In this document: one piece after another, positions 4,144 to 51,600 of the stretch
Layout: every line of letters begins with the position of its first letter
Position numbering within the stretch: the first letter of the stretch is position 1
NCBI GenBank assembly: GCA_963709505.1
Contig: CAVPXC010000033.1
Span: 9,289 to 73,288, forward strand
Source: an uncultured Chloroflexia bacterium
GTDB lineage: Bacteria; Chloroflexota; Anaerolineae; JAAEKA01
DNA length: 64,000 bases
Direction: 5' to 3'
Program-made: the position numbers and the translations under genes
Notes under the pieces: generated by a model
Seen by the model: the letters and a program-made list of their open reading frames with translations, nothing else
What the model was told of the DNA's origin: nothing
Database searches by the model: none

Positions 4144-4144
4144 C

Positions 4145-5343: not shown

Positions 5344-5361
5344 TTTGGCTCGATCATGGAA

Positions 5362-27519: not shown

Positions 27520-27625
27520 CAAATCATGGGTCATGGGCCCATTTGGAAGACACCCTTGTCGCCCACCCGGGGAACTCAAGGCCCCATTTGTCATCCAACC
27601 GAACGCACGGAAAAGGAGAAGCAAG

Positions 27626-30358: not shown

Positions 30359-30994
30359 CACCGGCAAGCCTGCCTGCTCCCAGGCCTGAAGACCGCCTAG
30401 GATTGCCTTGACGTCGGTATACCCCTGATCCATCAGGAATTGCGCCGCACGGGCGCTTGATTCTTCGGCCGGTCAGGTGCAGTAGGTGAGGATCTCGGCG
30501 TTCTTGGGAAGCTCATGCCGGCCGGCCTCCAGCTCGCTAAGCGGGATCGACGCCGCTCCCTCGATGTGGGCCGCCTGGTAGTATTCCACACCGCGCACAT
30601 CGACAACCACGACCTGGCCGGAATCCAGCCGCGCCTTGGCGTCGGCCGGGCTGATCCTGGGCACGTCAGGATAGGGAACGTCCTGCTGCGAGGCTGCCGG
30701 CGACTGGTTGGCGGGCACAAGGGTCGTCACCGGCTCTTGACGATTGAACAGCAGCGCGGCCAATAAGCCGATTATCAACACGGCCCCGCCAAGGGTGAGC
30801 CAAAGTCTTCGGCTGCCGCCACCACGAGGCTGGCTTTTAGCCTGCTGCGTCTGCCCAGCGATGGACGGGACGCCCTTCGGCCGGGCTGTCGCTACAGCCG
30901 CCCCGCAGGCGGTGCAAAAACTGGCGTCCGGCTTGAGCTGCGCGCCGCACTTCGTGCAGAACTGCGTTGGGCCGGGGGATGGGGAGTCGGTCAT
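30341..30994 (-). CDS. Zinc-ribbon / TM / rhodanese-domain protein with an in-frame UGA (30475-30473); candidate selenoprotein or nonsense pseudogene
   Basis: Start MTDSPSP at 30994 after GGAG. FCTKCG..FCTACG, then a TM, then the rhodanese domain. The frame reads ...ILTYCT-TGA-PAEESSARAAQFLMDQGYTDVKAILGGLQAWEQAGLPVVNSKQ-TAA with no other stop. Confidence 0.6.
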
Positions 30995-31233
30995 GTCGAG
31001 TAATCTCCGATTTTTTCGATAGGATGGGGAGCATCGGCATTTGCCACAGGGATGCGCCAGAACCCGCAATTCGACGGTCAGGAAAAGCGCTTTCAAGGCG
31101 CTTTCGGCCAACCACTAGCCGGGGCCGAAATTCCTGCTATCATGGCAAGTGCGCCGGCCCTGCACTGGCAGGCTAGCCGTCGAATTCTGACATGATAGCG
31201 GTAGAAGCGCAAATCTGCCAAGGAGGATCATCC

Positions 31234-32743: not shown

Positions 32744-33801
32744 GACAGTCAACAGCAAAAGCAGTTGGAGCGCTGCTGGCCGGCGCGCTCTTGCTGGTAG
32801 CATGCAGCCAGAGGACGGCGCAGCAACTGCCGGCGGCGGCGCCGTCCCCTACGCCCAGCAGTCTCAGCGGACCAAAGCCCTCCTCCGGCATGGCCCACAT
32901 GATGGCCTCACTGCCAGACGAGAACGTTCCCGCCGCTACGGTCAACGAGGGCAACCAGCCTCTAACCAGCCGCGACGAAAACGGGGTTAAGGTCTTTGAG
33001 CTGACCGCCAAACCGGTTCGCTGGAACTTCGGCGAAGGCATCGAACAGGTGGCCTGGACCTACAACGGCATGGTTCCGGGGCCGCTGATTCGGGTCGTGG
33101 AAGGCGACAACGTGCGCTTCGTCGTCAAAAACGAATTGCCTGAGCCAACGACTATTCACTGGCACGGCATCGAGCTACCGAACAGCATGGATGGCGTGCC
33201 CGGCATGACCCAGGAGGCGATCCAGCCCGGCGAAACTTTTACCTACGAGTTCGTGGCCAAGCCGGCCGGCACCTTCTGGTACCACAGCCACGTCGACAGC
33301 GACGTCCAAATCGGAGTTGGCCTGCACGGTGCCTTTATCATCGACCCCAAGACACCCGATGCCGATCCGCCGGACGTGGACGAGGTGGTGATGCTCAATG
33401 AATGGCGCTTCGTCGACGGCAAGACCTACGCCTCGATGCCGATGTCGGGCATGGACCCCAACTACTTCACCATCAACGGCAAGATCTTCCCGGCCACAAA
33501 GACCGTCCATGCCAAGGTGGGTGACCGCGTGCGGTTGCGCTTCATCGCCGCCGGCCAGTTCGTGCACCCGATGCACCTGCACGGCTTTCCCTTCAAGATC
33601 GTCGCCACCGACGGGCATCCTGTACCCGAGGCGTCACAACTGACCAAGGACACCGTGCTGGTTGCGCCCGGTGAACGCTACGACGTCGAGTTCGTCGCCA
33701 CTGAGCCGGGCATGTGGATGATCCACTGCCACATCACGCATCACACCACCAACGACGGCGAGGAGCCGGGTGGGTTGATGATGGTGGTCAATGTCGAATG
33801 A
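32740..33801 (+). CDS. Small (two-domain-size) multicopper oxidase
   Basis: Copper-ligand blocks HWHG, WYHSH, HPMHLHG and HCHITHH..M. 353 aa with a lipoprotein-like leader. Confidence 0.85.
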   Translation: MRQSTAKAVGALLAGALLLVACSQRTAQQLPAAAPSPTPSSLSGPKPSSGMAHMMASLPDENVPAATVNEGNQPLTSRDENGVKVFELTAKPVRWNFGEGIEQVAWTYNGMVPGPLIRVVEGDNVRFVVKNELPEPTTIHWHGIELPNSMDGVPGMTQEAIQPGETFTYEFVAKPAGTFWYHSHVDSDVQIGVGLHGAFIIDPKTPDADPPDVDEVVMLNEWRFVDGKTYASMPMSGMDPNYFTINGKIFPATKTVHAKVGDRVRLRFIAAGQFVHPMHLHGFPFKIVATDGHPVPEASQLTKDTVLVAPGERYDVEFVATEPGMWMIHCHITHHTTNDGEEPGGLMMVVNVE

Positions 33802-33843
33802 TGAGTGCGGAATGCGGAATGATGAATGGCGGAAGGCGGAAGT
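33796..33843. repeat. Heptamer array (GAATGMG / GGCGGAA units)
   Basis: gaatgatgagtgcggaatgcggaatgatgaatggcggaaggcggaag. The MCO stop codon lies inside it. Confidence 0.8.
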
Positions 33844-33885
33844 CAGAGTGAGTTTCGCCGTCTTAGAGAAAGGATATCTTCAGTG

Positions 33886-34296
33886 ATGATGAAGCGATGT
33901 GTTTTCGCCCTGGCTGTTCTCCTTGTTGTGGCGGTAGTAGGCGCGTGTGCCGCGCCGGTTGCAGCCCCGGCACCTGCAGCACCTGCGGCCAGTGGCCCGC
34001 CTCAGGTCACCCTGACCACCAACCCTAACCCGGCTGCCGCCGCCGGCGAGACCGAGCTGGTGGTCGAGGTCAAAGACTCCGCCGGCAAGCCGCTCAGCGG
34101 CGCCAAGGTGCTGGTGACGGCTGACATGGCCGCCCACAGCATGGGTGCCATGCAGGGCGAGGCTACCGATCAGGGCAACGGCCGCTACGCCACCAAGGTA
34201 CCCTTTGGCATGGGCGGCGACTGGAAGATAACTATCGAAGTGCGCCAGGGCGACACAGTCCTGGCGACCCAAGATTTCGTCGTTCCCGTTCAGTAG
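33886..34296 (+). CDS. YtkA-like domain lipoprotein
   Basis: Lipobox VGAC. DMAAHSMGAM motif. Paralogue of 2258..2686. Confidence 0.6.
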   Translation: MMKRCVFALAVLLVVAVVGACAAPVAAPAPAAPAASGPPQVTLTTNPNPAAAAGETELVVEVKDSAGKPLSGAKVLVTADMAAHSMGAMQGEATDQGNGRYATKVPFGMGGDWKITIEVRQGDTVLATQDFVVPVQ

Positions 34297-34459: not shown

Positions 34460-34991
34460 GTGACCAAGAAGAAGTCTCAGAACAAACCTTCGACCGCAAA
34501 ACAACCGTCTCCATCGCCCCAGCGCGCTCGATGGCCATATGTGGTCTTGGCAATTGTCCTGGTCGTGGCTGCGGCCGCGGCTATCCTCCTGCTGCAATCG
34601 GCCAAGCAGCCTGCCGCTGGCGCGTTGACTGGCACCAGCGCGCCGGCCGGCGCCGGCCGCCCTCAGTTGGTCGTCGACCAGGAGCAGATCGACTTCGGCT
34701 CCGTGCCGGTCAACAAGATGGTCAAGGCCAGCTTCAAGCTAACCAACGCCGGCGACACACCACTCACGCTCTCGGTCCCCCCGGTAGCCCAAGTCGTCGA
34801 GGGCTGCTGACCGCCCAGAATTGTCGTCGGTTCGACGACCTTAAAGCCGGGCCAGCAGACCGATCTCAGTATGGAATTCACCATGCATGCAGGCATGGAA
34901 GGGGAGCATGATTTTCGAGTTCGCGTTGAAGTCAAACGATCCAGCCAACCCGGAACAGGAGCTGAAGGTACTCTCGAATTGGATTCAGTAG
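34460..34991 (+). pseudogene. DUF1573-like membrane-anchored protein with an in-frame UGA (34808-34810) and an apparent +1 frameshift (about 34938)
   Basis: GTG start after GGAGG. The frame reads ...VAQVVEGC-TGA-PPRIVVGSTTLKPGQQTDLSMEFTMHAGMEGEHDFRVRVEVK, then shifts to NDPANPEQELKVLSNWIQ-TAG. The stop sits just before the RBS of the next gene. Confidence 0.55.
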
Positions 34992-35015: not shown

Positions 35016-35276
35016 ATGTGGTGGAATCATGGAGCTGGAATGGGATGGATGGTCGGCGGCGGTTTGATGATGTTGCTGTTCTGGGGAGGATTGATCTTCC
35101 TGTTCGGCTTGGGCGTCTGGGCGTTTAGCCGCTCCGGGCAGCAGCGCTCCGGCGATTCCAGCCAGACATCTGTTGCGAAACAGGATCGCGCCTTGGAGAT
35201 CTTAAAGGAACGCTATGCACGAGGCGAGATCACGAAGACCGAATACGAAGAGATACGCAACGACATTCGAACCTGA
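35016..35276 (+). CDS. SHOCT-domain membrane protein
   Basis: AGGAGG RBS. Gly/Met-rich TM and a C-terminal LEILKERYARGEITKTEYEEIRNDI SHOCT motif. Confidence 0.7.
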   Translation: MWWNHGAGMGWMVGGGLMMLLFWGGLIFLFGLGVWAFSRSGQQRSGDSSQTSVAKQDRALEILKERYARGEITKTEYEEIRNDIRT

Positions 35277-35353
35277 TGGGCACGAAGCTCCAACGCGCAT
35301 GCAGGCGTAGGCATTCCCAAGGACAACAGGGACCAAGAAGCGAGGACATGACT

Positions 35354-35767
35354 ATGAGACGGATTAGCTTGTTAGCAATCGTGATGGCGCTTGTAATCGG
35401 CGCTTGCAGCGCCCCTGGCCCCGGCCAGGTCGACCAGTCGCCGGCGCAGCCTGCCCAGGTCACCAAAATCGACGCCGACCAGCTAGCCACGATGCTGCAA
35501 AACAAGGACTTTACTTTCGTAAACGTCCACATTCCCTATGCAGGCGAGATCGCCAACACGGACCTACAGATCCCCTACAACGAGATGCCTGCCAACCTGG
35601 ACAAGCTACCCAACAAGGATGCCAAGATCGTGCTCTATTGCCGCAGCGGCCGCATGTCGGACGAGGCCAGCCAGGAGTTGGTCAAGCTCGGATACACGAA
35701 CGTCTATGACGTGGTAGGCGGTATGCAGGCCTGGACGGCTTCGGGACGTGAGGTAATCCAAAAGTAA
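35354..35767 (+). CDS. Rhodanese-domain lipoprotein
   Basis: Lipobox IGAC. Active-site loop YCRSGRMS. GGMQAW. Confidence 0.8.
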   Translation: MRRISLLAIVMALVIGACSAPGPGQVDQSPAQPAQVTKIDADQLATMLQNKDFTFVNVHIPYAGEIANTDLQIPYNEMPANLDKLPNKDAKIVLYCRSGRMSDEASQELVKLGYTNVYDVVGGMQAWTASGREVIQK

Positions 35768-36175: not shown

Positions 36176-36204
36176 TTGCCGTGCAGGTGTTTTTCGGATA
36201 CAAT
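36176..36204 (+). promoter_or_regulatory. Candidate promoter placing the transcription start at or next to the kinase ATG (possibly a leaderless mRNA)
   Basis: TTGCCG, a 17-nt spacer, then TACAAT ending 7 nt before ATG 36212. Confidence 0.3.
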
Positions 36205-36211
36205 GCCCGGC

Positions 36212-37657
36212 ATGTCCTTTGCCAAGCGTTTCCGTGGTTTGCTCGAAAACCCGCATTTCTGGGTGGTCGTTGCCGGATTGGCAATCACCACTTGGCTGCA
36301 TTACACCACTAGCCCGCTGCTGTTCGAGCAGCACACCGTCTACCGCTACCTCTACTTCCTGCCCGTCGTCTACGCCGCCCTGCGTTTTGGGCTGTGGGGG
36401 GGATTGCTCGCCGGCCTGACAGCCAGCTTGCTTTTTGCACCGCACATCTGGCTCAAATTCGGCCACTTCCCCGAGGAGAGCCTCAACGATCTTTTTGTCG
36501 CCGTAGTTCTGACCTTGGTGGGCATTTTGACTGGTGCGCTAACTGATGCGGAGCGCCGCCAGCGGCGGAAGCAAGAAACTGCCAGCGCTCAACTGGCCCA
36601 GTCTTTGGCGCAACTGGAGCACCGCACGGCCGCGCTGGAAGAGATGCAACGCTATATCAACAGCGTGCTAGCCTCGCTGAGCTGCGGCGTGATTACTGTC
36701 GACGCAGCGGGCCGCGTCACGACCGATAATCCGATGGCCCGCACCCTCCTAGGCAGCAATTTGATCGGCCAGCCGCTGCCCGCTTCCCTCGTTAACCGGT
36801 CAAAATCAGGCTTTGATGGCTACCGCCAGATGCGGTTGGCCGGCCGGCCGGTAGGAGTGCACGCCGGTCCGCTGACCAGCGGCGATGGCAGGCACATGGG
36901 CACCGTGCTCGTGCTGGACGACCTGACCGAAGTCAAGGCGCTTGAGGAGCAGGTGCGGCGGGCAGAGCGGCTCAGCGCGCTCGGTACGCTTGCGGGCGGC
37001 GTGGCGCACGAAGTGCGCAACCCCGTGGGCATCATCCGCGCCAGCGCGCAGCTCATGGGCTCGCTTCCAAGCGTCGCCGAGGATGTCGGCAGCCACGAGT
37101 ATTTGTCGGTGATTACGCAGGAAGCCGATCGCATCGACCGATTGGTCGAAGATCTGCTCGGCTACGCCCGCGCCGGCGAGCTGAGCCTGGCACCGGTGGA
37201 CATGGAAGAGTTGGTCCGCAGCACCGCCGCGCGACTGGCCTCGCTGACCGAGCAGGCGGACGTCGATCTGGTGGTTGAGGTTGAGCCTCGGCTGCCTCGG
37301 GTTGAAGGCGATGCCGGCAAGCTGGAGCAAGTGCTGTTGAACCTGGGCCTAAATGCCATCGCCGCGATCCAGGCGGCCTATCCACGCCCAGCGGCCGGCG
37401 GCCGGCTGGTACTGTCCGCACAGCGCGCGCCGGGCGGCCTGCACTGCGTCGTGCGCGACAACGGCCAGGGCATGCCCGACGACGTGCGCGTCCACATCTT
37501 CGACCCCTTTTTCACCACCCGCGACGACGGCACCGGCCTGGGCCTGGCCATCGTCCAACGCATCGTCGCCGACCACGGCGGCACAATCGAGGTCGCCAGC
37601 GAGCCTGGCAAGGGCGCTACGTTTACCATCTGGCTGCCTGCGATGAACGAGGAATGA
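36212..37657 (+). CDS. Membrane sensor histidine kinase (PAS, HisKA, HATPase)
   Basis: 4 TM, H-box [11 protein letters not shown]-box LNLGLNAI, G-boxes DNGQGM and GTGLGL. The last codons and the stop lie inside the GATGAAC array. Confidence 0.85.
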
Positions 37658-37757
37658 TGAACGATGAACGATGAATGCGGGCGGACGAAGTTTCCGCATT
37701 CATCGTTCATCGTTCATCATTCCTCGTTCATCATTCCGCATTCATCGTTCATCGCTG
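37642..37757. repeat. Inverted pair of heptamer arrays (GATGAAC / GTTCATC), about 39-bp perfect arms
   Basis: gatgaacgaggaatgatgaacgatgaacgatgaatgcgg is mirrored by ccgcattcatcgttcatcgttcatcattcctcgttcatc. Confidence 0.95.
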
Positions 37758-37825: not shown

Positions 37826-38621
37826 GTGCCCAACTCACCCGTTCAGCTAGCCATCGCCGAATGGCAAGACAAGCAGATCACCGGCACCGAATTGATGCGC
37901 CGGTTGGTGTCCTTCGATAAGTGGATGGTTCCGGTGTCTGAAGCCGCAGCGGCCGAAATGGTTAGCACGAGGAGCAGCCTCGCGCTTGATGTACAGCCAG
38001 GACGGCGAAGGCGTCTCCCGTCTGTACCTCTTCTCCGACGGCGAGGCCTACGATGCGTTCCGCGCGTCCGTGGGGCAGGATGCATCCGAGCAGCACTTTC
38101 TATCCACGACCGGGACATGGATCTTTCAACTCCCCCTGGACCCACTCGACTTCATCGAGATCGATCCGGCGACGCCCTGGCAGATTGGTTATCACAAAGA
38201 GCAGTTCCCCCGCTTGCGAGCCATGGCTGCCGCCGTCGAGGTCGAACTGGCGCTGGCAGCCTTGCGCGCCGGCACGGCAGAGCCCGGCTCACTCACGAAG
38301 GTGCGGCAATACGAGCACTACATTCTAGCCGTCACCAGCCGGGATGGCGGCCACACCCTGGCCCTCGCGCCGGACGATCGCGACCGCACGCTAGCCGCCA
38401 TTTTCACCTCCGACGATAGCTTCCAAGCCTTCCTCCCCGAAGGCGGAGCGCTACTTTCGGACGGGCAGCTCCTGCGCGTTGCGCTGGCCGGCCCACAGCT
38501 CTTCGAACAACTGTCCCGGATGTCGCTGGACGGCGTCGTCTTCAACTGCAGCGGCCCCGGCCGCCCCATCGCCTTTGCCCAGGCATTTCTCACTGTCATC
38601 CTGGAGGCCAAATCGGAATGA
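37826..38621 (+). pseudogene. SseB-like protein (two SseB_N-like halves) with an apparent +1 frameshift
   Basis: GTG 37826 follows AAGGAG. ...KWMVPVSEAAAAEM (frame 37784) joins ...LMYSQDGEGVSRLYLFSDGEAYDAF...AAIFTSDDSFQAF (frame 37986). The family call is weak. Confidence 0.45.
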
Positions 38622-38622
38622 T

Positions 38623-38691
38623 GAATGATGAGCGATGAATGATGATTTCGAAATCATCATTCATCGCTCATCATTCATCATTCATCGTTCA
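38623..38691. repeat. Near-perfect palindrome built from GAATGAT/GATGAGC heptamers
   Basis: ggaatgatgaatgatgagcgatgaatgatgatttc | gaaatcatcattcatcgctcatcattcatcattc. Confidence 0.95.
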
Positions 38692-38694
38692 AAC

Positions 38695-39969
38695 ATGACC
38701 ACAGTCCTAATCGTCGACGACGAAGCCAACATGCGCTGGGTGCTCCAGCGTGCGCTCGAACAGGCCGGTTACCAGGCCCTGGCCGCCGGCCGCGGGGAGG
38801 AGGCGCTCAACCTGGCTGCGCGCAACCGGATCGATCTGGCGCTGCTTGATCTGAAGATGCCCGGCATGGATGGCCTGGCCGTGCTACGCGAGCTCCACCT
38901 GCGCCAGCCCGATCTGCCGGTGATTTTGTTGACCGCCTACGCCACCGTGCCGACCGCGGTCGAGGCCATGCGCCTGGGCGCGCTGGACTACCTGCGCAAG
39001 CCGTTCGACGTGGAAGAGGTGCTCTTCAAGATCGCCAACGCTTTCCAGCGGCGGGCCGTGCAGATCGAGCGGGACGCGCTCAGCGCCCGGCTGCGGCAGG
39101 CAGGCAACTCGGCGGCAGGCCCAGGGCTGTTTAGCTTTGCACGCTTTGTCGGCGCGAGCCCGGCCCTGACCGAACCCCTCACGCACGCACGTGCCGCGGC
39201 GCACAACGACTACCCTGTGCTGATCACGGGCGAGGAAGGCACGGGCAAAACCCTGCTGGCGCAGCTGATCCACGGCCAGAGCCGCCGGCCCGACGCGCCG
39301 CTGGTGACCACGGACTGCGGCAGCCTGAGCGCCGGCGCGCTGCGGCAGGAGCTCCTGGCGGAGAGCGGCAGATGGCGACAGGCGCTTGGCGGCACCTTAT
39401 TATTGCGCCGCATCGGCCGGCTCCCCGACGAGCTGGCAGAGCCGCTAGCGACGCATTTGGCCGGCCTGCTGCGTTCGCCGGAGCGGCCGGCGGGCTTGCG
39501 AGTCATCGCCACCGCTGCCGACGAAATTACGCCCTCGTTGTTGGCGCTGTTGGACGGCATCCGAATCGCGCTTCCGCCGCTCCGCGAGCGCGATGGCGAC
39601 TTGTTGTTGTTGGCCCAGCACTTGGCGCCGGGCACAAAACTGGGCGGGCTTGCGCTCAGCGCACTTCTGGCCTATCCTTGGCCGGGAAACGTCTCCGAGT
39701 TGGCAGGCGTTCTGGCTCACGCCAAGGCCCTGGCCGGCGAGGGGACCATCGAAGTCGAGCATCTGCCGGCTCGCATCACCATGGCGTCGTCAGATGAGAC
39801 AGCCACCTTCCGCCTGCCGCCGGGCGGCATCGACCTGGACCAGGTAGAGCGCGAGCTGATTCGCCAGGCGCTGGATAGGGCTCAGGGCAACAAGAGCCAG
39901 GCCGCGCGCCTGCTTGGCCTGACACGGCACACGTTGCTGTATCGGTTGGAGAAGCACGGGTTCGAATAG
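38695..39969 (+). CDS. NtrC-family response regulator with a degenerate AAA+ module (REC, AAA-like, Fis-type HTH)
   Basis: REC: LIVDDE...DLKMPGMDG...KPF. Walker A reads GEEGTGKT. The Walker B position reads LLLRRIG instead of the usual FLDEIG, and no GAFTGA loop is seen. C-terminal NKSQAARLLGLTRHTLLYRL. Confidence 0.8.
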   Translation: MTTVLIVDDEANMRWVLQRALEQAGYQALAAGRGEEALNLAARNRIDLALLDLKMPGMDGLAVLRELHLRQPDLPVILLTAYATVPTAVEAMRLGALDYLRKPFDVEEVLFKIANAFQRRAVQIERDALSARLRQAGNSAAGPGLFSFARFVGASPALTEPLTHARAAAHNDYPVLITGEEGTGKTLLAQLIHGQSRRPDAPLVTTDCGSLSAGALRQELLAESGRWRQALGGTLLLRRIGRLPDELAEPLATHLAGLLRSPERPAGLRVIATAADEITPSLLALLDGIRIALPPLRERDGDLLLLAQHLAPGTKLGGLALSALLAYPWPGNVSELAGVLAHAKALAGEGTIEVEHLPARITMASSDETATFRLPPGGIDLDQVERELIRQALDRAQGNKSQAARLLGLTRHTLLYRLEKHGFE

Positions 39970-40110: not shown

Positions 40111-40140
40111 ATTGACTTCGCATCCGCCTTGGTGTTATGC
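40111..40140 (+). promoter_or_regulatory. Weak candidate promoter upstream of the PCFCGC/CuA cluster
   Basis: TTGACT, an 18-nt spacer, then TATGCT. Confidence 0.25.
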
Positions 40141-40198
40141 TTCACAATGTCTGGTCGAGCCATTTACGCAAGCTCTGCCTAACGACACTGGGCGGCGC

Positions 40199-40262
40199 GA
40201 TTGCAGATTGCAAGTGGCAAGTTCAGCACCTGCAACCTGCAACTTGCCACCTGCAACTTGGC
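40199..40262. repeat. Inverted heptamer arrays (TTGCAGR / CTGCAAC)
   Basis: gattgcagattgcaagtggcaagttcag | cacctgcaacctgcaacttgccacctgcaacttgg. Confidence 0.8.
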
Positions 40263-40280: not shown

Positions 40281-40838
40281 ATGCAGCGAAACCCAAGGCG
40301 AATGCTGATCCTGGGCATTCTTATCAGCTTGTTGATAGCAGCTTGCGGTGGCAGCGCCGCCCAACCGACGAGCGACACGAAGATGGCGCCGGAGTCGCAG
40401 CTTCCCGCTGAGATGAAGGACCAGCCGGCCAGAGTGATAGAGGCGTACCGTTTCGCGATCGCCAACCCCGATCTACTCAAGCAGATCCCCTGTTTCTGCG
40501 GCTGCGTGGCCGAGCAACACGAGTCGAACTACAACTGCTACGTCGCAAAAGATGGCGGCCCCGGCAGCGTTCTGGATTTCGACAACCATGCCACGGGCTG
40601 CGGCATTTGTGTTGACATCACTCAAGATGTGATGAAAATGCAACAAGAAGGCAAGAGCGTCGACCAGATGCGCGCGGTCATCAACCAACGCTACGGTAAT
40701 TTCGGCCCATCGACCGACGACGCCGGCAAGTCGTCCAGCACCGGCCAATTCATGCCGATCGGCGACACCACCCAGTTGATGAGCAGCCTACCCGAACACC
40801 ACTGCGACGAGGAGACAGGCCTCTGCGACTCTCAATGA
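40281..40838 (+). CDS. PCYCGC-motif lipoprotein (motif here PCFCGC)
   Basis: GGAGG RBS. Lipobox IAAC. IPCFCGCVAEQHESNYNCY, GCGICVD, and a C-terminal HHCDEETGLCD. Confidence 0.7.
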   Translation: MQRNPRRMLILGILISLLIAACGGSAAQPTSDTKMAPESQLPAEMKDQPARVIEAYRFAIANPDLLKQIPCFCGCVAEQHESNYNCYVAKDGGPGSVLDFDNHATGCGICVDITQDVMKMQQEGKSVDQMRAVINQRYGNFGPSTDDAGKSSSTGQFMPIGDTTQLMSSLPEHHCDEETGLCDSQ

Positions 40839-41281
40839 TCGCCGCAATGCTGACCGGGCTGCTAGCGCTGGCCGCGTTGATTGCGCCGCTGCCCAGCGCA
40901 GCCAGCGCTGCCGTTGAACGCAGCATCGTGCTCGACGCCCGCATGTTCGCCTACACGCCCGGCCGGCTGCGAGTCAACCAGGGCGACCGGGTAACGCTCA
41001 CACTGCAATCTTCGGATGTCGTCCATGGCCTCTATATCGACGGCTACGGCGTGGACATCCAGGCCGAGCCCGGCCAGCCGGCCGAGACCACCTTCGTCGC
41101 CGACCGCCTGGGTAAGTTTAAGTTCCGCTGCTCCGTGAGCTGCGGTGCCATGCACCCCTTCATGATCGGCGAGCTGGTCGTCGGCCCAAACATCCCGTTC
41201 TGGCGCGCGGTCGCAGCGCTTTTTGTGGTAACCGTAGGCTCTTTGGTAACTGTGTCGCTGTCTCAAAGAAGTGGAGGGTAG
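40835..41281 (+). CDS. Membrane-anchored cupredoxin with a CuA-type site
   Basis: ATGA overlap with the upstream gene. VVHGLYIDG ... C-SVS-C-GAM-H-PF-M matches H...CxxxCxxxHxxM. Confidence 0.7.
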   Translation: MIAAMLTGLLALAALIAPLPSAASAAVERSIVLDARMFAYTPGRLRVNQGDRVTLTLQSSDVVHGLYIDGYGVDIQAEPGQPAETTFVADRLGKFKFRCSVSCGAMHPFMIGELVVGPNIPFWRAVAALFVVTVGSLVTVSLSQRSGG

Positions 41282-41381
41282 AGAGTGGAGAGTGTGGAAC
41301 GCCGAAGACATGCTAGAACTTCAAGTCCTCCACCCTCCACCCTCCACCCTCCACTCTCCACCCTCCACTCTCCACCCTCCC
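41272..41381. repeat. Inverted GTGGAGR / YCTCCAC heptamer arrays filling the intergenic gap
   Basis: gtggagggtagagagtggagagtgtgg ... cctccaccctccaccctccaccctccactctccaccctccactctccaccctcc. Confidence 0.9.
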
Positions 41382-42776
41382 ATGATCCCCACCGTACGAC
41401 CTGATTCCTCCTGGCGCTTTGAGCTAACAAAGATCTCGTGGGTGCGCCGCCTGCTGACGTGGCGGCCGCTGCAGTTCAGCGTGACCTTGGTCATGCTGGG
41501 GTTTTTCGTGCTGGCCATGCTCACCGGCTTCTTCGGCACGCCCGTCGGCAACCGCAACTTCAGCATCATCTTCGTCTGGATCGTGTGGTGGGCGCTGGTG
41601 ATCATCCTGCTAGTGCCAGCCCTCGGCCGCGGATGGTGCGCCATTTGCCCGATCCCGGCGCCGGGGGAATGGCTGCAACGACAGAGCTTCGTTCACCCCC
41701 GGCAGAGAAAGCTATGGACGCTGGGCAAACGTTGGCCCAACAAGCTAAAGAACATCTGGATCCAAAACTTCGCCTTTCTCGGCGTAGCCCTGTTTAGCGC
41801 CATCATCCTAACCCGGCCCGTTGCCACAGGCGCGATATTGCTGCTGTTCATCGTGCTGGCCTTCGCTCTGAGCATACTTTTTGAGCGGCGCACATTTTGC
41901 CGCTACGTCTGCCCGGTAGGCGGATTTATCGGGCTCTACTCTATGACCGCGCCGATCGAGCTGCGCGTCAAAGACGTTGAGGTGTGCCGGACCCATGACA
42001 CCAAGGACTGCTACCTGGGCAACGAGCAGGGTTTCGGCTGCCCGTGGCTGGTCTTTCCGGGCAGCCTAACCCGCAATACCTACTGCGGCTTGTGCACGGA
42101 GTGTCTCAAGAGCTGCACCATGAACAATGTGGCGATCAACCTACGGACGCCCGGCGCCGACTTGTTCGTCGCCAAGGGCCGCCGGCTGGACGAGGCGTAT
42201 AAGGCCTTTATCATGCTCGCCTGTGCGATCGCCTACTCGGTCGTGCTCCTCGGTCCGTGGGGTCTGCTCAAGGAGGCGGCGAATTTCGGCAGCGTGCCGG
42301 CCTGGCTGCTGTACGCCGCCGGCTTCCTGGCACTCAACCTGCTGATCGTACCTGGCCTGTTCTTTGGCGCCACCAGCTTGAGCCGCGCCCTGGGCGGCCT
42401 GAAGCAGATCCGGCCCAAGGCCGTGTTCATCGACTACGCCTACACCCTGGTGCCGCTGGGCCTGGCCGCCTGGATCGCCTTCAGCCTGAGCTTTGTGTTG
42501 GTCAATATCAGCTACGCTCTGCCGGTGATCGGCGACCCGTTCGGCTGGGGCTGGAATCTGCTTGGCCTACGGGATGTGCCCTGGACGCCGGTGCTTCCAG
42601 CGCTTGTGCCTTACCTGCAAGTGCCTGTGCTGTTGGGCGGCCTGGCCTTCAGCATCAACGCCGCCTGGCGCATTGCCCAAGAGCAGACAAGAACCCACGC
42701 GCTGCGGGCGATATTGCCGGTGGTGGCGTTTCTGATGGCGGTCACGTTGGTGCTTTTCGCGCTGTACCTGGGCTAG
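41382..42776 (+). CDS. NapH/NosH/CcoG-like polytopic 4Fe-4S protein
   Basis: Start MIPTVRP lies after the repeat. GWCAICP and FCRYVCPVGG (CxxCP), CGLCTECLKSC (CxxCxxCxxxC), and about 10 TM. Confidence 0.7.
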   Translation: MIPTVRPDSSWRFELTKISWVRRLLTWRPLQFSVTLVMLGFFVLAMLTGFFGTPVGNRNFSIIFVWIVWWALVIILLVPALGRGWCAICPIPAPGEWLQRQSFVHPRQRKLWTLGKRWPNKLKNIWIQNFAFLGVALFSAIILTRPVATGAILLLFIVLAFALSILFERRTFCRYVCPVGGFIGLYSMTAPIELRVKDVEVCRTHDTKDCYLGNEQGFGCPWLVFPGSLTRNTYCGLCTECLKSCTMNNVAINLRTPGADLFVAKGRRLDEAYKAFIMLACAIAYSVVLLGPWGLLKEAANFGSVPAWLLYAAGFLALNLLIVPGLFFGATSLSRALGGLKQIRPKAVFIDYAYTLVPLGLAAWIAFSLSFVLVNISYALPVIGDPFGWGWNLLGLRDVPWTPVLPALVPYLQVPVLLGGLAFSINAAWRIAQEQTRTHALRAILPVVAFLMAVTLVLFALYLG

Positions 42777-42782
42777 CGCGAA

Positions 42783-42870
42783 TACCTCGTAAGGCGTAAC
42801 ACGTAACTCGGAAGCCGGAACAACTCGATACCCTCCGGGTTCCGGGTTACGTGTTACGCCTTACGAGGTA
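42783..42870. repeat. 25-bp-arm perfect hairpin (TACCTCGTAAGGCGTAACACGTAAC...) with an inner CCGGAAC/GTTCCGG stem
   Basis: The arms are 42783-42807 and 42846-42870. Confidence 0.95.
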
Positions 42871-42882
42871 CGTCCCAAAAAC

Positions 42883-43998
42883 ATGACCGATCAATCTTCA
42901 AATCCTTCCACCGAAAAATATCCCACGTTTCGTTCAGGCCGGGAACGTGTTGCGCTGGGACTGGTGCTGCTCGTTGTACTCGGTCTACCCCTCGCCATCT
43001 TTGGCTATCAACGGCTGCGGGCTGCCGGGCCGATGCGCACCGTCGAGATCACGGCTCGGCTGCCAACCTCCGACTTGGGAGGCTGGACGCCCGAGGTAAT
43101 CACCGTGCAAAAGGGCGAGCGGGTGCGCCTGCGTCTGACCAGCGCCAACGTCGTGCACGGCTTTGCCGTGCCCAAGCTGGGCATCGACGCCGGCTGGATC
43201 GAACCGGGCAAGGTCACCGAGGTCGAATTCGTCGCCAACCGGCCGGGCCGCTACACCACCGAGTGCACCGTCTACTGCGAGGCGGGCCACTGGCGCATGC
43301 GCGGGATCATCCAAGTGGTGGATTCCAACGATCCCCTGGCGTCGGAACAGGACAGTGACCCGCCACAGACCGACTGGGTGGCCTCGGGCATCGACGTTGA
43401 CGCCGAGCACCCCGGCGAGAATGCGCCGGAGCAGGCGCCCGATGCAGCTAACGGCGCCCGGCTTTGGCAGCAAATCAACGGGCGGACGGCTGCCGAGGTT
43501 GCGGAATCGCTCGACCTGCGCCACAGCAGCCCAAGCGACATTTTTGCGCTGCTAGCCTCGCCCGACTTGCCAGAAAGCAAAGCCATAGCTGCCTTAACGC
43601 CGGCCGAGCGCTGGGACGTCGTCGCCCATCTGTGGCGCGCGTCGACCACTCCAGAGACCCTGCAGCTCGGCGCGAAGTTGTACAAGCGTGACTGTACCGG
43701 TTGTCATGGGCCAAACGGCAAGGGTGACGGCCCGGGCGCGGCGGCAATCAAGCAGCAGAACACCCTGCAGGGCATGGCTGGCATGGGAGACATGCCGGGT
43801 ATGAACAAAGCCCCCACCGACTTCACCGACCTGACCGCGCAGGCCGGCGCCTCCGATTTACTCTACTATGGCAAGCTCGTGCGCGGCGGCATGGGCACTT
43901 CCATGCCGTATTGGGGAACGATTTACACAGAGGATGAGTTGTGGGCGGTGATCGTTCACCTACGAAGCCTGGCGTTTCAGTATCCCCCGCAGCATTAG
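42883..43998 (+). CDS. CoxB-like CuA cupredoxin fused to a class I cytochrome c
   Basis: N-terminal TM. VVHGFAV ... [13 protein letters not shown]-terminal [13 protein letters not shown] ... [11 protein letters not shown]. Confidence 0.75.
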
Positions 43999-48669: not shown

Positions 48670-51600
48670 ATGCCTAACTTCACATATCGCAAACTTCTGT
48701 CGACCTTCGGCTCTCTGGCCGTACTGACATTGACTGTCTTGTCATCTACGGCGTCGGCCACACCCGGCCGTGCCGAAGCGGGCGATGTTCAAATCCGGAT
48801 AGCGACCACCCACCTCAACGCGCCCGCCGAACCGTGCACGGACAGCTTCGTCGCCATCCCCCTTGACCACACCACCACCGTCCCCGGCGACACGGTCGAT
48901 CACTACGAAGCCAACGGCGCCGGCGTTGCCATCGGCGACCTCGACAACGACGGCGACTTGGACGTCGTCCTGGCGAACCACGCCGGGCCAAACACGATCC
49001 TGTGGAATGAAGGGGGCCTGCACTTTCGTACCGAGCGGATGGACCATGGCGACTCGCGCGCGGTGAGCGTCGTCGACGTCGATGCCAACGGCTGGCTGGA
49101 TATCGTCTTCACCCGGCGGACTGGCGGCATGGCCTGGTGGCAGAATCGTGGCCAGGCCGGCGAGCCCGGTCGCTTCCGCCGCGAGGTGCTGCCCGGCGTC
49201 GCTCGCCCAGCCTATGCCATGGCCTGGGGTGACCTGGATGCCGATGGCGATCTGGATCTCGTCATCGGCTCCTACGATGCCAGCCTGTTGGATGACCTGG
49301 GCAATGAATTTCTCTTGAAGGGCGGAGGCGGGGTTACTTTCTACGAAAACCGCGCCGGCAGGTTCGTGCCAACCGGCTTGGAGTCCAAAGCGCAGGCGAT
49401 GGCGATTGCCCTGTTCGACGTCGACCGCGACGGCCGGCGAGACATCGTGGTGGGCAACGACTTCGCCGTCCCGGACCATGCTTGGATCCGTGGAGAGTCT
49501 GCCTGGCAGCGCACATCGTTTGAGACCACCAGCCACAGCACGATGAGCCTGGATGCCGGCGACGTCGACAACGACGGCGTATTTGAGCTGTTCTCGACCG
49601 ACATGATGCCTATTGACGACGCACCTGCGACCGTCGCAGCGTGGGATCCGCTGATGGCCGGCATGGTCGATCCGATCGACCCAGCCGATCCACAAATCAT
49701 GTCGAACGTGCTCCAGGTGGCAACCGAAAAGGCGGGCTATCAAAACGCGGCCCGGCCGCGCGGCGTCGACGCGACGGGCTGGAGCTGGTCGGCGAAGTTC
49801 GGCGATCTGGATCAGGATGGGCTGCTGGACCTGTACGTGGTCAACGGGATGATCGAGTCGACGATGCTGGCTCACCTGCCCGACCACGAGCTGGTCGAGG
49901 CCAACCAGGCGATGCACAACGTCGGCGACGGTTTTTTCCGGCCGGCGCCGCAGTGGCAGCTTGGCTCGTCCGCCAGCGGCCGCGGCATGAGCATGGCCGA
50001 CCTGGATGGCGACGGCGATCTGGACATCGTCGTCAACAACCTGCGACAACCAGCCCAGCTTTTCGAGAACCGGCTGTGCGGAGGCCAGAGCCTTCTCGTC
50101 GACCTGCGCTGGCCGGGCAGCGCTAATGCACACGCCATCGGCGCCGAGCTTACGCTCAAAACCAGTGACGAAACAATGACGCGAGACGTGCGCTCCGGCA
50201 GCGGATACCTGTCCGGCGACCCATCGCGTAGTCACTTTGGCATTCCGGCTGGCGCATCGACGCAATCCCTGGAGATCCGTTGGCCCGATGGGGTCCTCTC
50301 AACAATACGCGATCTCCAACCCAACACACTGCTAATGGTGACTCGCGAAGACACCGTCAGACCAAGTCCCGACAAGTCCGCTGCGCCCAACTCTCCGAAC
50401 AGCACCCTGCGAGCCATCATCGCCCAGCAAGGCTTGACCGGCGACCCCAGCACCGGTCGCGAGCTGCCCGATATTGAAGACCCGCTGGCGCAGTTGGGGA
50501 TGAAACTGTTCTTCACCAAAGCGCTCGGCGGCGACAAAGACTCGGCCTGTGTGACCTGCCACCACCCGCTGCTGGGCGGCGGGGATGGCCTGGCGCTGTC
50601 TATCGGCGTCGGCGCGACGGAGCCGGACCTGCTCGGGCCCGGACGGACCCATCCTAGCGACTATTTCAATGTTCCACGCAACGCGCCCACCACGTTCAAC
50701 ATCGGGCTGTGGGACCAGGTCTTGTTTTTCGATGGCCGGGTGGAGAGTCTGGGCAAAACCGCCGGCAAGAACGGCGACGATGGTCTCGGAATCCGAACCC
50801 CAGATACGCGTCTTGGCATTGCGGATCCCAGCGCCGGCGACAGCTTGGTCACGGCCCAAGCGCGCTTTCCTGTGACGTCCAAAGAAGAAATGCGCGGCTC
50901 ATCCTTCGAGTTCCACCGGCCAAACCGTCTCGTGCGTGAACATCTCGCCGCCCGTTTGGGCGACTACGGGTCGGGCAAGCAAGAGCTGGACATTAACCAA
51001 TGGATTGACGAATTCCAGCAGGTCAAGGAAGGCCAGAACGTCGAGGGTGTCATCAGCTACGACACCATAGCCGCAGCCATGGCTGCCTACCAGAAGTCAC
51101 AGGTCTTCGTCGACACCCCATGGCGAGCCTATGTCCAGGGCGACGACGGCGCAATCGATGAGTCGGCCAAACGCGGCGCGCTGCTGTTTTACTCGGAGAT
51201 CGGTAAAAGCGGCGCAGGATGCGCCGAGTGCCATCAGGGCGACTTCTTTACCGACGAGCAGTTCTACACTCTTGCCATTCCGCAGATTGGCAATGGCAAG
51301 GGCGATGGTCCTCACGGCGACGATGATTTCGGACGCTTCCGCGAGACCGGGCGTGCGGACGATCTCTATGCCTTTCGCACGCCGACCCTGTTGAACGTCG
51401 AGGTGACGGGACCGTACGGTCACGACGGCGCGTACGATACCTTGGAAGGCATCGTGCGCCATCATCTCAATCCCGTCGAAGCCGTGCGATCGTATGATCC
51501 TGGCCGGCTCGATCCGGCAGTCAAGACAACTCACCTCGTGCCCAACACCCAGCGCGCCCTGGCTAAACTGGCCGCCGATCGCCGGATGGGGTGGACGCCC

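Follow-up and report, generated by a model that had tools for sequence, protein, structure and literature searches.

Two CuA cupredoxins around a NapH-like polyferredoxin belong to a conserved gene module that looks like a copper-linked electron-transfer device

Introduction

Two separate proteins with a CuA signature are encoded close together in the 64-kb window (the whole stretch of DNA that was analysed), and neither an oxidase subunit I nor NosZ, which the preliminary description likewise had not seen nearby, is encoded anywhere in it. What, then, do these CuA proteins serve? An electron wire without a catalytic subunit had been suggested. In this study, such a wire fits the anatomy of the locus, and its link to copper is supported by the gene neighbourhoods. 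Because the genes are conserved in hundreds of genomes without an oxidase or reductase partner, the module looks like an undescribed copper-linked electron-transfer device. No description of it was found in the searchable literature, which agrees with the earlier remark that the gene order was not that of a described system.

Gene content and conservation of the module

Pfam and structure searches agreed with the four open reading frames and the domains first assigned to them, all on the forward strand: A (40281-40838), B (40835-41281), C (41382-42776) and D (42883-43998). Relatives of C are encoded by at least 551 species genomes. The neighbourhoods of the best 80 loci with C relatives, mostly from Chloroflexota, were surveyed, and the order A-B-(DUF1573-like)-C-D recurred among them. 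The counts are uncorrected for phylogeny, and the loci come mostly from metagenome-assembled genomes: A was found in 67 and the cytochrome c of D in 63 of the 80 loci, an ORF with the CuA motif preceded C in 78 of 79 loci, and the CuA motif followed C in 70 of 75. At 10 loci and among database matches, B is joined to the N-terminus of C, which gives fusion proteins of 614-681 aa; B is fused to C in about one in eight genomes. The four genes are thus strongly co-conserved, and together with a DUF1573-like CC/CU protein, a fifth member that had been overlooked, they form a conserved module.

Some loci depart from this arrangement. Minimal variants keep B and C and have neither A nor the DUF1573-like protein. 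Thermoflexus-type loci carry a type-1 blue copper lipoprotein instead of the cytochrome c of D, and Ardenticatenaceae-type loci combine the B-C fusion with a di-haem cytochrome c and GltD-like NAD(P)H Fe-S flavoproteins (Fer4_20 and Pyr_redox_2). These output and input variants support an electron-transfer role.

A catalytic partner was searched for in the same material. The COX1 motifs GHPEVY and WxHHM[FY] were absent from the 1.08 Mb of the 80 loci and from the window, so B and D are not coxB paralogues beside a lost coxA; NosZ was not seen in the loci either. No large family recurred in the 80 neighbourhoods besides C, histidine kinases and multicopper oxidases, and no respiratory partner (oxidase, reductase or cytochrome c biogenesis) did so.

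CuA cupredoxins B and D

B is a secreted CuA-type cupredoxin with a C-terminal transmembrane (TM) anchor; its predicted ligands are H64, C99, C103, H107 and M110 (motif at 41129-41164). D consists of an N-terminal TM anchor, a CuA cupredoxin with predicted ligands H92 and a 12-residue motif at 43264-43299, and, after a linker of about 100 aa, a class I cytochrome c (PF00034, Cytochrom_C, E 8.9e-13; CTGCH at 43693-43707, conserved Met341), as had been recognised at the outset. Pfam, PDB relatives and synteny support both assignments, and both proteins score above the Pfam gathering thresholds for COX2 and Cupredoxin_1. The whole soluble domain of each can be aligned to the CuA domain of Thermus ba3 subunit II (2cua, 1ehk_B), where His, Cys, Cys, His and Met line up; such domains are the best PDB relatives of B (E 1e-13 to 1e-11), and D matches the ba3 domain at about 1e-10. 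In a six-frame translation of the window, the pattern H-x30-40-CxxxCxxxHxxM occurred exactly twice, in B and D, against a mean of 0.01 in codon-shuffled windows, which bears out the claim of two separate CuA proteins. The Cys, His and Met ligands are kept in orthologues of both, and the orthologues of D retain CxxCH in 94-96% and the anchor residues E21, A24, P36 and Y42 in 90-97%. We infer that both sites would hold copper.

B and D share the cupredoxin fold and the complete CuA ligand set with subunit II of ba3 and caa3 oxidases (CbaB, CtaC), and D also resembles the caa3 subunit in fusing CuA to cytochrome c. However, no subunit I lies nearby at any examined locus, and these proteins are partnered with a polyferredoxin. 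The signal of B is cleavable and its anchor C-terminal, D spans the membrane once where the oxidase subunit does so twice, and the NCBIfam CoxB model (TIGR02866) scores them at 48-58, about one third of its cut-off of 148. PmoD, too, is a separate secreted cupredoxin anchored by a C-terminal TM helix, and it forms a CuA-like site, but that site spans a dimer and uses a different ligand set. CopI and CopJ of Cupriavidus, a cupredoxin and a cytochrome c in copper-resistance islands, also resemble this module, and B shows weak similarity to CopI (E 0.031); unlike B and D, CopI has a green type-1-like site with His/Met-rich copper-binding regions. Neither PmoD nor CopI-CopJ comes with a NapH-like polyferredoxin or with Sec/Cys accessory proteins.

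The membrane polyferredoxin C

Pfam (Fer4_5), NCBIfam, AlphaFold and alignment place C in the NapH/NosR superfamily of polyferredoxins. Its AlphaFold model (pLDDT 76, pTM 0.78) has 9 TM helices, one fewer than the roughly ten first counted. Residues 1 to about 300 form a NapH-like module, in which positions 109-292 align with most of NapH, but the NCBIfam NapH/MauN match (E 2e-7, score 30.7) is far below the cut-off of 213. A fold search of C against the PDB gave no match, no CcoG/FixG model matched it, and no FixG-type Ig domain was seen. Of the two CxxCP motifs assigned to C, one stands (CAICP, 41637-41651), whereas the other is CxxxCP (CRYVCP, 41898-41915). The seven-Cys Fe-S region (41985-42116) holds the reported CxxCxxCxxxC in one canonical copy, and also an atypical C-x7-C-x9-CP with an invariant His. 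Eleven Cys and H206 are invariant.

The short loops carry 17 Lys and Arg inside versus 4 outside; the N-terminus is predicted to be inside, and all 11 invariant Cys are predicted to be cytoplasmic. By alignment and topology prediction, no His, Met or Cys is invariant outside or within the TM helices. The path from quinol through Fe-S to CuA could not be kept as first written: the Fe-S domain and the CxxCP-type motifs are predicted to be cytoplasmic, and CuA and haem c lie outside, so the clusters would not be a simple quinol-CuA relay. The same geometry is found in NapH and NosR. With the Fe-S domain and CuA on opposite sides and no conserved haem or metal ligands of C between them, an electron wire does not account for the transmembrane step, a difficulty that it shares with NapH and NosR.

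NapH, NosR and RdhC share a module of four TM helices with two CX3CP motifs, for which both quinol oxidation and the feeding of an exocytoplasmic redox domain are proposed (PMC5928378). Like NosR, NapH and RdhC (PceC), C has Cys-x(2,3)-Cys-Pro motifs after TM helices and then a cytoplasmic two-cluster ferredoxin-like domain. NosR and RdhC also carry an N-terminal exocytoplasmic redox module, and the B-C fusions mirror their FMN domain; NosR and NosGH, feeding NosZ, are similarly tied to cytochrome c and a CuA entry site. In contrast, the outer module here is a CuA cupredoxin rather than FMN or NapG, C has five extra TM helices with an invariant, Trp-rich outer loop (DPFGWGW), one of its motifs is CxxCP instead of CX3CP, its first Fe-S motif is atypical, and the nap, nos and rdh catalytic genes are absent.

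The likely start of C is the ATG at 41382. A GTG at 41271 was rejected, as it sits inside a long imperfect hairpin rich in GGAG/CTCC in the B-C spacer (41270-41380, inverted repeats I2-I6). The C-D spacer holds a hairpin with a 37-bp stem (42783-42870, inverted repeat I1, 95% complementary).

Lipoprotein A and the DUF1573-like protein

A is a PCYCGC-family lipoprotein by Pfam (PF13798, E 4e-26) and alignment, with the lipobox LIAAC and a GGAGG 7 nt before its ATG at 40281. The end of A and the start of B share 4 nt (ATGA, 40835-40838), so the Cys-rich PCFCGC lipoprotein coupled to the next gene was correctly described. What had been overlooked is the CcmH/NrfF-like C-terminal half, which rests on four weak but concordant searches: Pfam CcmH at 1.9e-3 and NrfF at 1.7e-3 and, as the top fold match, CcmH (2hl7) at E 1.5 are among the values obtained. 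As in CcmH, a CxxC is followed by QEGKS and RYGNF; A differs from CcmH and NrfF in being a lipoprotein and in its additional PC[FY]CGC/His/Cys cluster. C71, C73, C75, H80, C86, H103 and the pair C107-x-x-C110 are invariant. A also matches the model of the CYCXC (seleno)protein family (OS_HP4; 4e-18), and its orthologues carry Sec at C107, the first Cys of CxxC (TGA at 19 loci, TGC/TGT at 47).

The DUF1573-like protein, read through at 34460-34991 on the forward strand, has the motifs EGC-U-PP and MHxGMxGxH. Its gene lies between B and C or just 3' of D elsewhere, and 5.5 kb upstream of the module here, where the copy carries an in-frame TGA at 34808 and, at about 34925, a frameshift of 1 nt. 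The codon is TGA at 30 loci versus TGC/TGT at 16, with conserved coding sequence downstream, and a hairpin lies 14 nt after the UGA (-21.4 kcal/mol, z -2.4). Judged by these codons, A and its DUF1573-like partner are Sec/Cys families, a selenoprotein character that the preliminary description had not noticed, and the Sec/Cys pairs would mark redox- or metal-active cysteines in both. Both CYCXC, with UxxC, and DUF1573 appear in lists of selenoprotein families (PMC9312934, PMC13188914); where the list gives UGC for DUF1573, the protein described here has C-U (GCUPP). The function and gene context of both families are without prior description.

Copper genes and regulators around the module

The two-component system and the multicopper oxidase lie where they had been reported. 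Copper-homeostasis genes occupy 31192-34296 on the forward strand and encode a Met/His-rich lipoprotein, a two-domain multicopper oxidase (HWHG...HCH) and a YtkA-like protein. They are followed by a sensor histidine kinase of the DUF4118-HisKA-HATPase type, AtoS/ZraS-like and a putative regulator of the module (36176-37657, forward), and by an NtrC/ZraR-like response regulator immediately upstream of A (38635-39969, forward). Between the response regulator gene and A, no match to a sigma-54 promoter was found; a sigma-70-like site lies at 40112-40141. By eye, the AAA+ domain of the response regulator has no recognisable GAFTGA loop.

Among the 41 loci of at least 14 kb, copper-homeostasis genes (CopA-type ATPase, multicopper oxidases, YtkA-like, DUF305, Met-rich and TRASH-ABC proteins were counted) lay within 8 kb of the module in 28, and a histidine kinase or response regulator in 30. 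Some loci have no copper gene; in one (L081), the module sits among sugar-metabolism genes. We believe that the module is probably copper-regulated. Lipoprotein rhodaneses are encoded in the window and at 10 loci.

Proposed mechanism and alternative explanations

The explanation that we put forward, and to which we give an even chance, is a copper-regulated electron wire of NosR/NapH design, in which CuA is the outer redox module and which brings its own factors for maturation or for handling copper. The core would be the membrane polyferredoxin C. Its exocytoplasmic partner would be B, held beside C by the C-terminal TM helix and replacing the FMN domain of NosR and RdhC or NapG. Reducing equivalents may enter at C in one of two ways: menaquinol may supply them at the 4-TM/CX(2,3)CP module, in the manner proposed for NapH, or a donor in the cytoplasm may dock on the Fe-S domain. 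On the outer face, they would pass from CuA of B to CuA of D and then to haem c of D, the outer end of the chain, and leave for a high-potential acceptor encoded outside the module. We speculated that A, with its CcmH-like CxxC/UxxC and Cys/His cluster, and the DUF1573-like protein, with CC/CU and MHxGMxGxH, are thiol- or selenol-based accessory factors, which may hold the cysteines of CuA and haem in the reduced state and supply Cu(I), or may bind copper directly. The two cannot simply be substrates of this chain, since the potentials of CuA and c-type haem, usually about +200 to +300 mV, are too positive for disulfide reduction. Because the module sits in copper-homeostasis islands beside two-component regulators, it would most likely serve the redox handling of the extracytoplasmic pool of copper, or provide a copper-dependent route for electrons that is turned on under copper abundance.

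A housekeeping role is rather unlikely. Here, C-B-D would be a menaquinol:cytochrome c/cupredoxin oxidoreductase, which would stand in for bc1 or Alternative Complex III and supply terminal oxidases or reductases whose genes lie elsewhere, and the nearby copper genes would only supply cofactor. The module consists of electron carriers, its output is now one, now another of the standard periplasmic carriers (cytochrome c, di-haem cytochrome c, blue copper protein), quinol oxidation is proposed for the NapH membrane module (PMC5928378), and the locus among sugar-metabolism genes lacks a copper gene. However, what recurs in the 80 neighbourhoods is not a respiratory partner but multicopper oxidases, CopA-type ATPase, DUF305 and Met-rich proteins, and the two-component system beside most copies is more typical of a stress- or condition-specific regulon.

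Strict copper detoxification or trafficking seems doubtful to us. B and D would oxidise Cu(I) without O2, as proposed for CopI, or buffer copper, while C would be a CcoG-like cupric reductase or redox sink and A and the DUF1573-like protein would carry Cu(I). The copper islands, the Cu(I)-ligand-type Cys/Sec and Met/His motifs of the two accessory proteins and the weak resemblance of B to CopI are consistent with this, and the related polyferredoxin CcoG is a cupric reductase. But both cupredoxins have the full CuA electron-transfer ligand set instead of a surface copper-binding site, C lacks the CcoG/FixG features and any conserved metal ligand on its outer face, and from standard potentials the transfer from Cu(I) to menaquinone would be uphill.

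We regard an extracytoplasmic sulfur/selenium or thiol-redox system as improbable. In such a system, C would be a DsbD/CcdA-like conduit of Cys pairs and Fe-S clusters that reduces A and the DUF1573-like protein, with rhodaneses as partners. The Sec/Cys pairs fall at a CxxC and a CC motif, A has its CcmH-like half, lipoprotein rhodaneses recur, the CX3CP role is not settled (PMC5928378), and at one locus (L082) CcdA-like, rhodanese, cysteine desulfurase, Se_S_carrier and YeeE/YedE genes lie upstream instead of copper genes. Nevertheless, two CuA centres and a haem c are left unexplained, the CxxCP and CxxxCP motifs are predicted to be cytoplasmic and not intramembrane, and the minimal variants retain B and C without either Sec/Cys protein.

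That B and D are ordinary ba3- or caa3-type subunit II paralogues with subunit I elsewhere, or decayed cox/nos remnants, is effectively refuted, even though their best solved relatives are ba3 CuA domains and homologues of D are annotated as 'cytochrome c oxidase subunit 2' in some pipelines: the COX1 motif and a further large recurrent family are missing from the loci, the CoxB scores and TM layout do not fit, the fusion partner of B is C and not an oxidase, and decay is ruled out by conservation in hundreds of species.

Composition of the Module and Its CuA Ligands

The module consists of four open reading frames on the + strand, just as the preliminary description had listed them: A (40281-40838), a PCYCGC lipoprotein; B (40835-41281), a CuA cupredoxin; C (41271/41382-42776), a NapH/NosR-like polyferredoxin; and D (42883-43998), a CuA cupredoxin joined to a cytochrome c. 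Pfam assigned PCYCGC to A, COX2 and Cupredoxin_1 to B, Fer4_5 to C, and COX2, Cupredoxin_1 and Cytochrom_C to D. The match of A to PF13798 (PCYCGC) had an E value of 4e-26 (92 bits against a cut-off of 25), and its match to NF041379, the NCBIfam model of the CYCXC (seleno)protein, reached 65 bits, under the cut-off of 90. A has the lipobox LIAAC, GGAGG lies 7 nt 5' of its ATG, and its stop codon and the start codon of B (ATG) overlap by 4 nt. A shows the traits of the PCYCGC/CYCXC proteins: the PC[FY]CGC motif, additional Cys that are conserved and, at UxxC/CxxC, a Sec/Cys pair (TGA for selenocysteine in some orthologues, a Cys codon in others).

Both B and D passed the COX2 gathering score in Pfam. 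The CuA ligands are H64, C99, C103, H107 and M110 in B and H92, C128, C132, H136 and M139 in D. Across the entire soluble domain, both cupredoxins aligned with the CuA domain of Thermus ba3 subunit II (2cua, 1ehk_B; E 1e-13 to 1e-10), with all five ligands (His, Cys, Cys, His, Met) in register, and both sites are predicted to bind copper. All six reading frames of the 64-kb window together gave exactly two matches to the pattern H-x30-40-CxxxCxxxHxxM, B and D, against a mean of 0.01 in codon-shuffled windows, which confirms the claim that two proteins carry the CuA signature. The cytochrome c said to be fused to the second of them was also found (PF00034, 8.9e-13; 49.8 bits against a cut-off of 21.3). 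Among D orthologues, the haem site C271, C274 and H275 was kept in 94-96% and the distal M341 in 93%; with CxxCH and a distal Met, D contains a class I c-type cytochrome domain.

Conservation and Variants of the Module

C had more than 3800 database relatives at E <1e-5 under generic names such as '4Fe-4S binding protein', and some of these, 614-658 aa long, have an N-terminal COX2/cupredoxin domain. In a scan of one genome per species, relatives of C were found in at least 551 genomes, and the best 80 loci were compared. Nearly all of these 80 loci were labelled Chloroflexota (Anaerolineae, Caldilineae, Ardenticatenales, Thermoflexus), and a few short contigs were binned to other phyla. When the window proteins were mapped, the order A-B-C-D on the same strand was recovered in most of the 80 loci. 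A was found in 67/80 and the D cytochrome c in 63/80; the DUF1573-like gene, the fifth member of the module, lay between B and C or directly after D in 40 loci, and an in-frame fusion of B to C was seen in 10.

ORFs with a CuA motif were also counted around C, independently of the motif-based selection. On the upstream side of C, within 1.5 kb, 78 of the 79 loci with sequence there had such an ORF (77 of them with the upstream His); on the downstream side, 70 of 75 had one (68 with the His). The ligands are thus conserved in orthologues and the genes are conserved together, two points on which the preliminary description had made the module depend. Clustering of all neighbourhood ORFs showed no recurrent large families beyond C, kinases and multicopper oxidases. 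The public names of the module proteins are generic or misleading ('c-type cytochrome', 'cytochrome c oxidase subunit 2'), and automatic names of the latter kind would be corrected by these results.

The variable parts differ between lineages. Loci of the Thermoflexus type have no A, a D without cytochrome c, and an added type-1 blue copper lipoprotein. In loci of the Ardenticatenaceae type (L014, L016 and L082), B is fused to C, and the fusion is accompanied by a di-haem cytochrome c and by GltD-like NAD(P)H Fe-S flavoproteins (Fer4_20 + Pyr_redox_2), one or two per locus. In L080, where B is a gene of its own upstream, C is directly followed by a GltD-like protein, and in L076 and L079 the N-terminal domain of this protein stands alone beside C. 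Because these variable parts are electron carriers, that is, standard outer carriers plus a possible inner pyridine-nucleotide-linked partner, they fit and support a function in electron transfer.

Two further observations were made in these loci. Upstream of the module in L082, from an Ardenticatenaceae MAG, positions 737-5609 encode a CcdA-like DsbD_TM protein, a rhodanese, a cysteine desulfurase, Se_S_carrier and two YeeE/YedE halves. A recurrent, unannotated protein of ~300-350 aa with the motif PCCGN.TA[FY]PDCNHG and a C-terminal Cys was found near the module in six loci (e.g., L021 13751-14671 and L076 3540-4595).

Relationship of B and D to Oxidases and NosZ

CuA centres are known only from a handful of settings, namely haem-copper oxidases, NosZ, CuA-NOR and a site of the PmoD type. 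The nearest NCBIfam models of B and D were CoxB and the CuA end of NosZ, with scores far under the equivalog cut-offs. For CoxB (TIGR02866), B scored 47.8 and D 57.8 against 147.7, and the membrane anchors are different: CoxB-type proteins have an N-terminal membrane hairpin of two helices (one helix in ba3), whereas B has a signal peptide and a C-terminal anchor and D has one N-terminal TM helix. Of the NosZ models, solely the C-terminal ~80 residues matched, with 43-46 bits against a cut-off of 625. In NosZ, the CuA domain is preceded by a seven-bladed propeller that carries CuZ, and the nosDFYL genes accompany it; neither the propeller nor nos accessory genes were found in the neighbourhoods of related loci.

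Among the large ORFs of the window, none encodes a haem-copper subunit I, a NosZ or another terminal enzyme, so the module was rightly described as lacking a catalytic subunit nearby. A hidden oxidase subunit I was rejected: the window has no COX1 Pfam match, and the COX1 motifs GHPEVY and WxHHM[FY] are absent from 1.08 Mb of the 80 loci and from the window. The idea that B and D are ordinary coxB paralogues, which had been named beforehand as the explanation that would undo the module, is effectively refuted by this absence from the loci and the window.

A large gene downstream was considered as the source of the missing acceptor. It encodes a secreted protein of 1059 aa (48670-51849, +) in which FG-GAP/VCBS repeats and an ASPIC/UnbV domain are fused to a CCP_MauG di-haem cytochrome c peroxidase domain. 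This candidate was rejected, with a homologue in 0/80 loci.

Anatomy and Family of the Polyferredoxin C

The likeliest start of C is the ATG at 41382; the GTG at 41271 falls within an intergenic hairpin. An alignment of 18 diverse members showed 11 invariant Cys. The invariant motifs are CxxCP after TM2 (CAICP), CxxxCP after TM4 (CRYVCP), an atypical motif in the Fe-S region (C203-x7-C211-x9-C221-P, with H206 invariant) and a canonical cluster motif (C236-xx-C-xx-C-xxx-C246). The AlphaFold model (pLDDT 76, pTM 0.78) has nine long helices, five of them TM helices in the C-terminal part. The preliminary description had proposed about 10 TM helices and two CxxCP motifs; the membrane protein stands, with nine helices in the model, and one of the two motifs is CxxCP while the other is CxxxCP.

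The short loops of C contain 17 K+R on the predicted inside and 4 on the outside, and all of the invariant Cys are placed on the inside by this prediction. The layout of the B-C fusion (signal peptide, outside cupredoxin, TM anchor, cytoplasmic linker, TM1 of C) agrees with this topology. Tat export of the Fe-S domain, suggested by the string 'ERRTF', was rejected; the first Arg is not conserved, being N or K in many orthologues, and the positive-inside count also places the domain in the cytoplasm. The outer face of C has the invariant Trp-rich loops GTPVGNRNF and DPFGWGW. The alignment showed no invariant Cys, His or Met on this face, and therefore no haem b and no outer metal site was seen.

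The nearest NCBIfam model of C was NapH/MauN. TIGR02163 scored 30.7 against a cut-off of 213, and most of the NapH model aligned with positions 109-292 of C. Proteins of the NapH/MauN/NosH type have four TM helices, two CX3CP motifs and two cytoplasmic CxxCxxCxxxCP clusters; C keeps this layout in altered form, with one CX2CP and one CX3CP and with one canonical and one atypical cluster motif. No NapG-like gene was present in the related loci. The CcoG/FixG family was absent from the Pfam and NCBIfam matches of C at E up to 0.1, and CcoG/FixG/RdxA proteins have a C-terminal FixG Ig-like domain, whereas C ends in five TM helices. The PDB, which has no apparent NapH, NosR or CcoG structure to compare, gave no fold match to the model of C at E up to 1e-3, the best listed being unrelated transporters. 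By sequence, C is a superfamily relative of NapH, MauN and NosH and not an orthologue.

According to a study of PceC, NapH, NosR and RdhC have in common a module of four TM helices and two CX3CP motifs, which was proposed to oxidise quinol and to pass electrons to an exocytoplasmic redox module; this is NapG in one case and, in NosR and RdhC, an FMN domain at the N-terminus, and the CX3CP motifs have no role assigned to them (PMC5928378). The B-C fusion has exactly the architecture of NosR and RdhC, with a CuA cupredoxin replacing the FMN domain. By analogy, the module may be likest in its working to a NosR/NapH system that feeds a CuA site. By model cut-offs and defining partners, it is classed as a member of none of NapH, NosR, CcoG, CoxB and NosZ.

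Accessory Proteins and Sec/Cys Pairs

The invariant residues of A are C71, C73, C75, H80, C86, H103 and C107-x-x-C110. The codon of C107 was TGA in 19 loci and TGC/TGT in 47, including the window, and was never TAA or TAG. Past CxxC, A reads ...QEGKS...RYGNF, as in CcmH, and four independent searches gave weak matches to CcmH/NrfF (Pfam 1.9e-3; NCBIfam 1.7e-3; PDB sequence 2kw0, 0.37; Foldseek 2hl7, E 1.5). CcmH was the single match of the fold search with the model of A (TM 0.51 on the target), and this modelled fold may be taken as concordant support for the weak sequence matches and nothing more.

The DUF1573-like gene (34460-34991, +) has an in-frame TGA at 34808 in the context EGC-U-PP. 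At this codon, 30 loci have TGA and 16 have TGC/TGT (Cys), and TAA/TAG was never found. The coding sequence is conserved past the TGA, including an MHxGMxGxH motif, and a stable hairpin begins 14 nt past the UGA. From the in-frame UGA/Cys alignment, the conserved downstream coding and the SECIS-like hairpin, we propose the DUF1573-like protein as a candidate bacterial selenoprotein. In the window copy, a +1 frame correction at ~34925 is needed to regain the conserved C-terminus LKSNDP...SNWIQ; an apparent 1-nt insertion there shifts the last ~21 codons and is a sequencing error or a real frameshift. The window contains no sel genes or tRNA-Sec. An ARAGORN 'tRNA-???' with an abnormal anticodon loop (5405-5485, +) was rejected as tRNA-Sec; Rfam has no tRNA there, and the prediction is probably spurious.

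CYCXC/OS_HP4 (UxxC) and DUF1573 (UGC) have already been listed as selenoprotein families of unknown function, with no mention of a link to this module (PMC9312934, PMC13188914). The listed DUF1573 motif is UGC, whereas the window protein has a C-U motif. A, the cytochrome c of D and the DUF1573-like gene co-vary across the loci when kinship is ignored.

Copper Setting and Possible Function

In the window, the module is the end of a ~16 kb copper island. It encodes an NlpE-N-domain protein at 27533-29047 (+) and a lipoprotein rich in Met and His at 31192-32637 (+), followed by a multicopper oxidase of two domains (motifs HWHG...HCH; 32740-33801) and, at 33826-34296, a YtkA-like protein. The DUF1573-like gene also belongs to the island, as do a SHOCT protein, an AtoS/ZraS-like kinase (36176-37657), an unknown ORF and an NtrC/ZraR-like regulator (38635-39969, +). 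The two-component system and multicopper oxidase reported beside the module are hereby located. Downstream, a convergent KefB-like antiporter terminates the unit. The island also has two rhodanese-domain proteins, a lipoprotein (35276-35767, +) and a zinc-ribbon-TM fusion (30473-31111, -).

The lipoprotein at 31192-32637 is extremely rich in Met and His: (P)MTHTMPM recurs many times, QMGQMMDMMGQMMQMMGQMHMKMG is also repeated, and CKMMGGKGC(D/A)MMKQAA is present in three copies. It is probably a copper-binding sponge and has a relative in L039 only; its C-terminal part is seemingly out of frame. The NlpE-N-domain protein seemingly continues in another frame as an 84-aa ORF (29038-29292, +), possibly its C-terminal part, which suggests a frameshift or an assembly error.

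Among the 41 loci of ≥14 kb, 28 had at least one copper-homeostasis gene within 8 kb, and 30 had a kinase or regulator. The copper genes counted were CopA-type ATPases (CPC + HMA motifs), two- and three-domain multicopper oxidases, YtkA-like, DUF305 and Met-rich proteins, and an ABC ATPase with a TRASH/YHS domain.

The module is real, non-random and conserved, with a well-defined anatomy from which we infer its function. We propose that it works as an electron wire in the style of NosR/NapH. C would be reduced by menaquinol or, via its Fe-S domain, by a cytoplasmic donor, and would pass the electrons across the membrane to the CuA of B. They would next move, still on the outer face, to the CuA of D and its haem c, and would end at an acceptor encoded outside the module. 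A and the DUF1573-like protein would be thiol/selenol accessory factors that mature the CuA and haem sites or handle Cu(I); maturation is suggested by analogy with Sco/TlpA, PCuAC and CcmH. The neighbouring two-component system would switch the module in a copper context.

A more specific reading, which we consider unlikely, is a branch without haem-copper oxidase in which a NapH-type quinol (or NAD(P)H-linked) dehydrogenase feeds CuA, then CuA/haem c, and finally an extracytoplasmic copper acceptor, either the two-domain multicopper oxidase nearby, which would reduce O2, or Cu(II). If true, copper detoxification would be linked directly to the respiratory chain, with selenoproteins serving it as accessory factors, and the module would be a tractable model for how NosR/NapH-type proteins move electrons across the membrane.

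Three further rivals to the electron wire were weighed. A housekeeping quinol:cytochrome c oxidoreductase would share the carriers, and in L081 the module lies among sugar-metabolism genes, an exception to the copper setting of most larger loci. A strict copper redox or trafficking device of the CcoG/CopI type would share that setting, and its CcoG side is at odds with the C-terminal half of C. A thiol or sulfur/selenium redox system would have its counterpart in the Sec/Cys pairs and in L082, the second exception, which has sulfur/selenium-trafficking genes upstream; it would not account for the two CuA centres and the haem c.

What appears to be new, judged from sequence, is the combination of a NosR/NapH-type polyferredoxin, a CuA protein as its outer module, and accessory proteins of the Sec/Cys kind. 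The accessible literature, where subscription journals are thinly covered and an earlier account is possible, yielded no report of these genes as a set. If the wire is true, it would define a large conserved family of stand-alone CuA proteins coupled physically to a NosR/NapH-type polyferredoxin, carried by hundreds of Chloroflexota species abundant in sludge, sediments and hot springs. Natural fusions of B to C, and partners that are small and visible to spectroscopy, could help to clarify cross-membrane communication in NosR/NapH proteins, the orphan selenoprotein families CYCXC/PCYCGC and DUF1573-like would gain a first functional setting, a copper-linked one, and the module may show how Chloroflexota with monoderm or atypical envelopes handle copper.

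Regulator and Intergenic Hairpins

The NtrC-like character of the upstream regulator prompted a search for a sigma-54 promoter (TGGCAC-N5-TTGCW); the 3 matches equalled the chance expectation of 3.0, none of them lay upstream of A, and the candidate was rejected. A weak sigma-70-like site lies at 40112-40141. The regulator (38635-39969) seemingly has no GAFTGA sigma-54 contact loop, its AAA+ region contains ELLAESGRWRQALGG, and it may activate transcription independently of sigma-54. The neighbouring kinases and regulators were not kept as CopRS-like, as their single-linkage clusters mix OmpR, NarL and NtrC types.

Long, near-perfect inverted-repeat hairpins occupy nearly every spacer in and around the operon (37648-37726, 38608-38694, 40208-40256, 41270-41380 and 42783-42870). 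They consist of short low-complexity repeats, and their sequences are all different. An Rfam scan of 27-46 kb returned only sub-threshold microRNA-like matches, which are these hairpins. They may stabilise mRNA, act as attenuators or belong to the REP-like elements, and some of them produce spurious N-terminal ORF extensions, e.g., HRSSFIIHRSSF.
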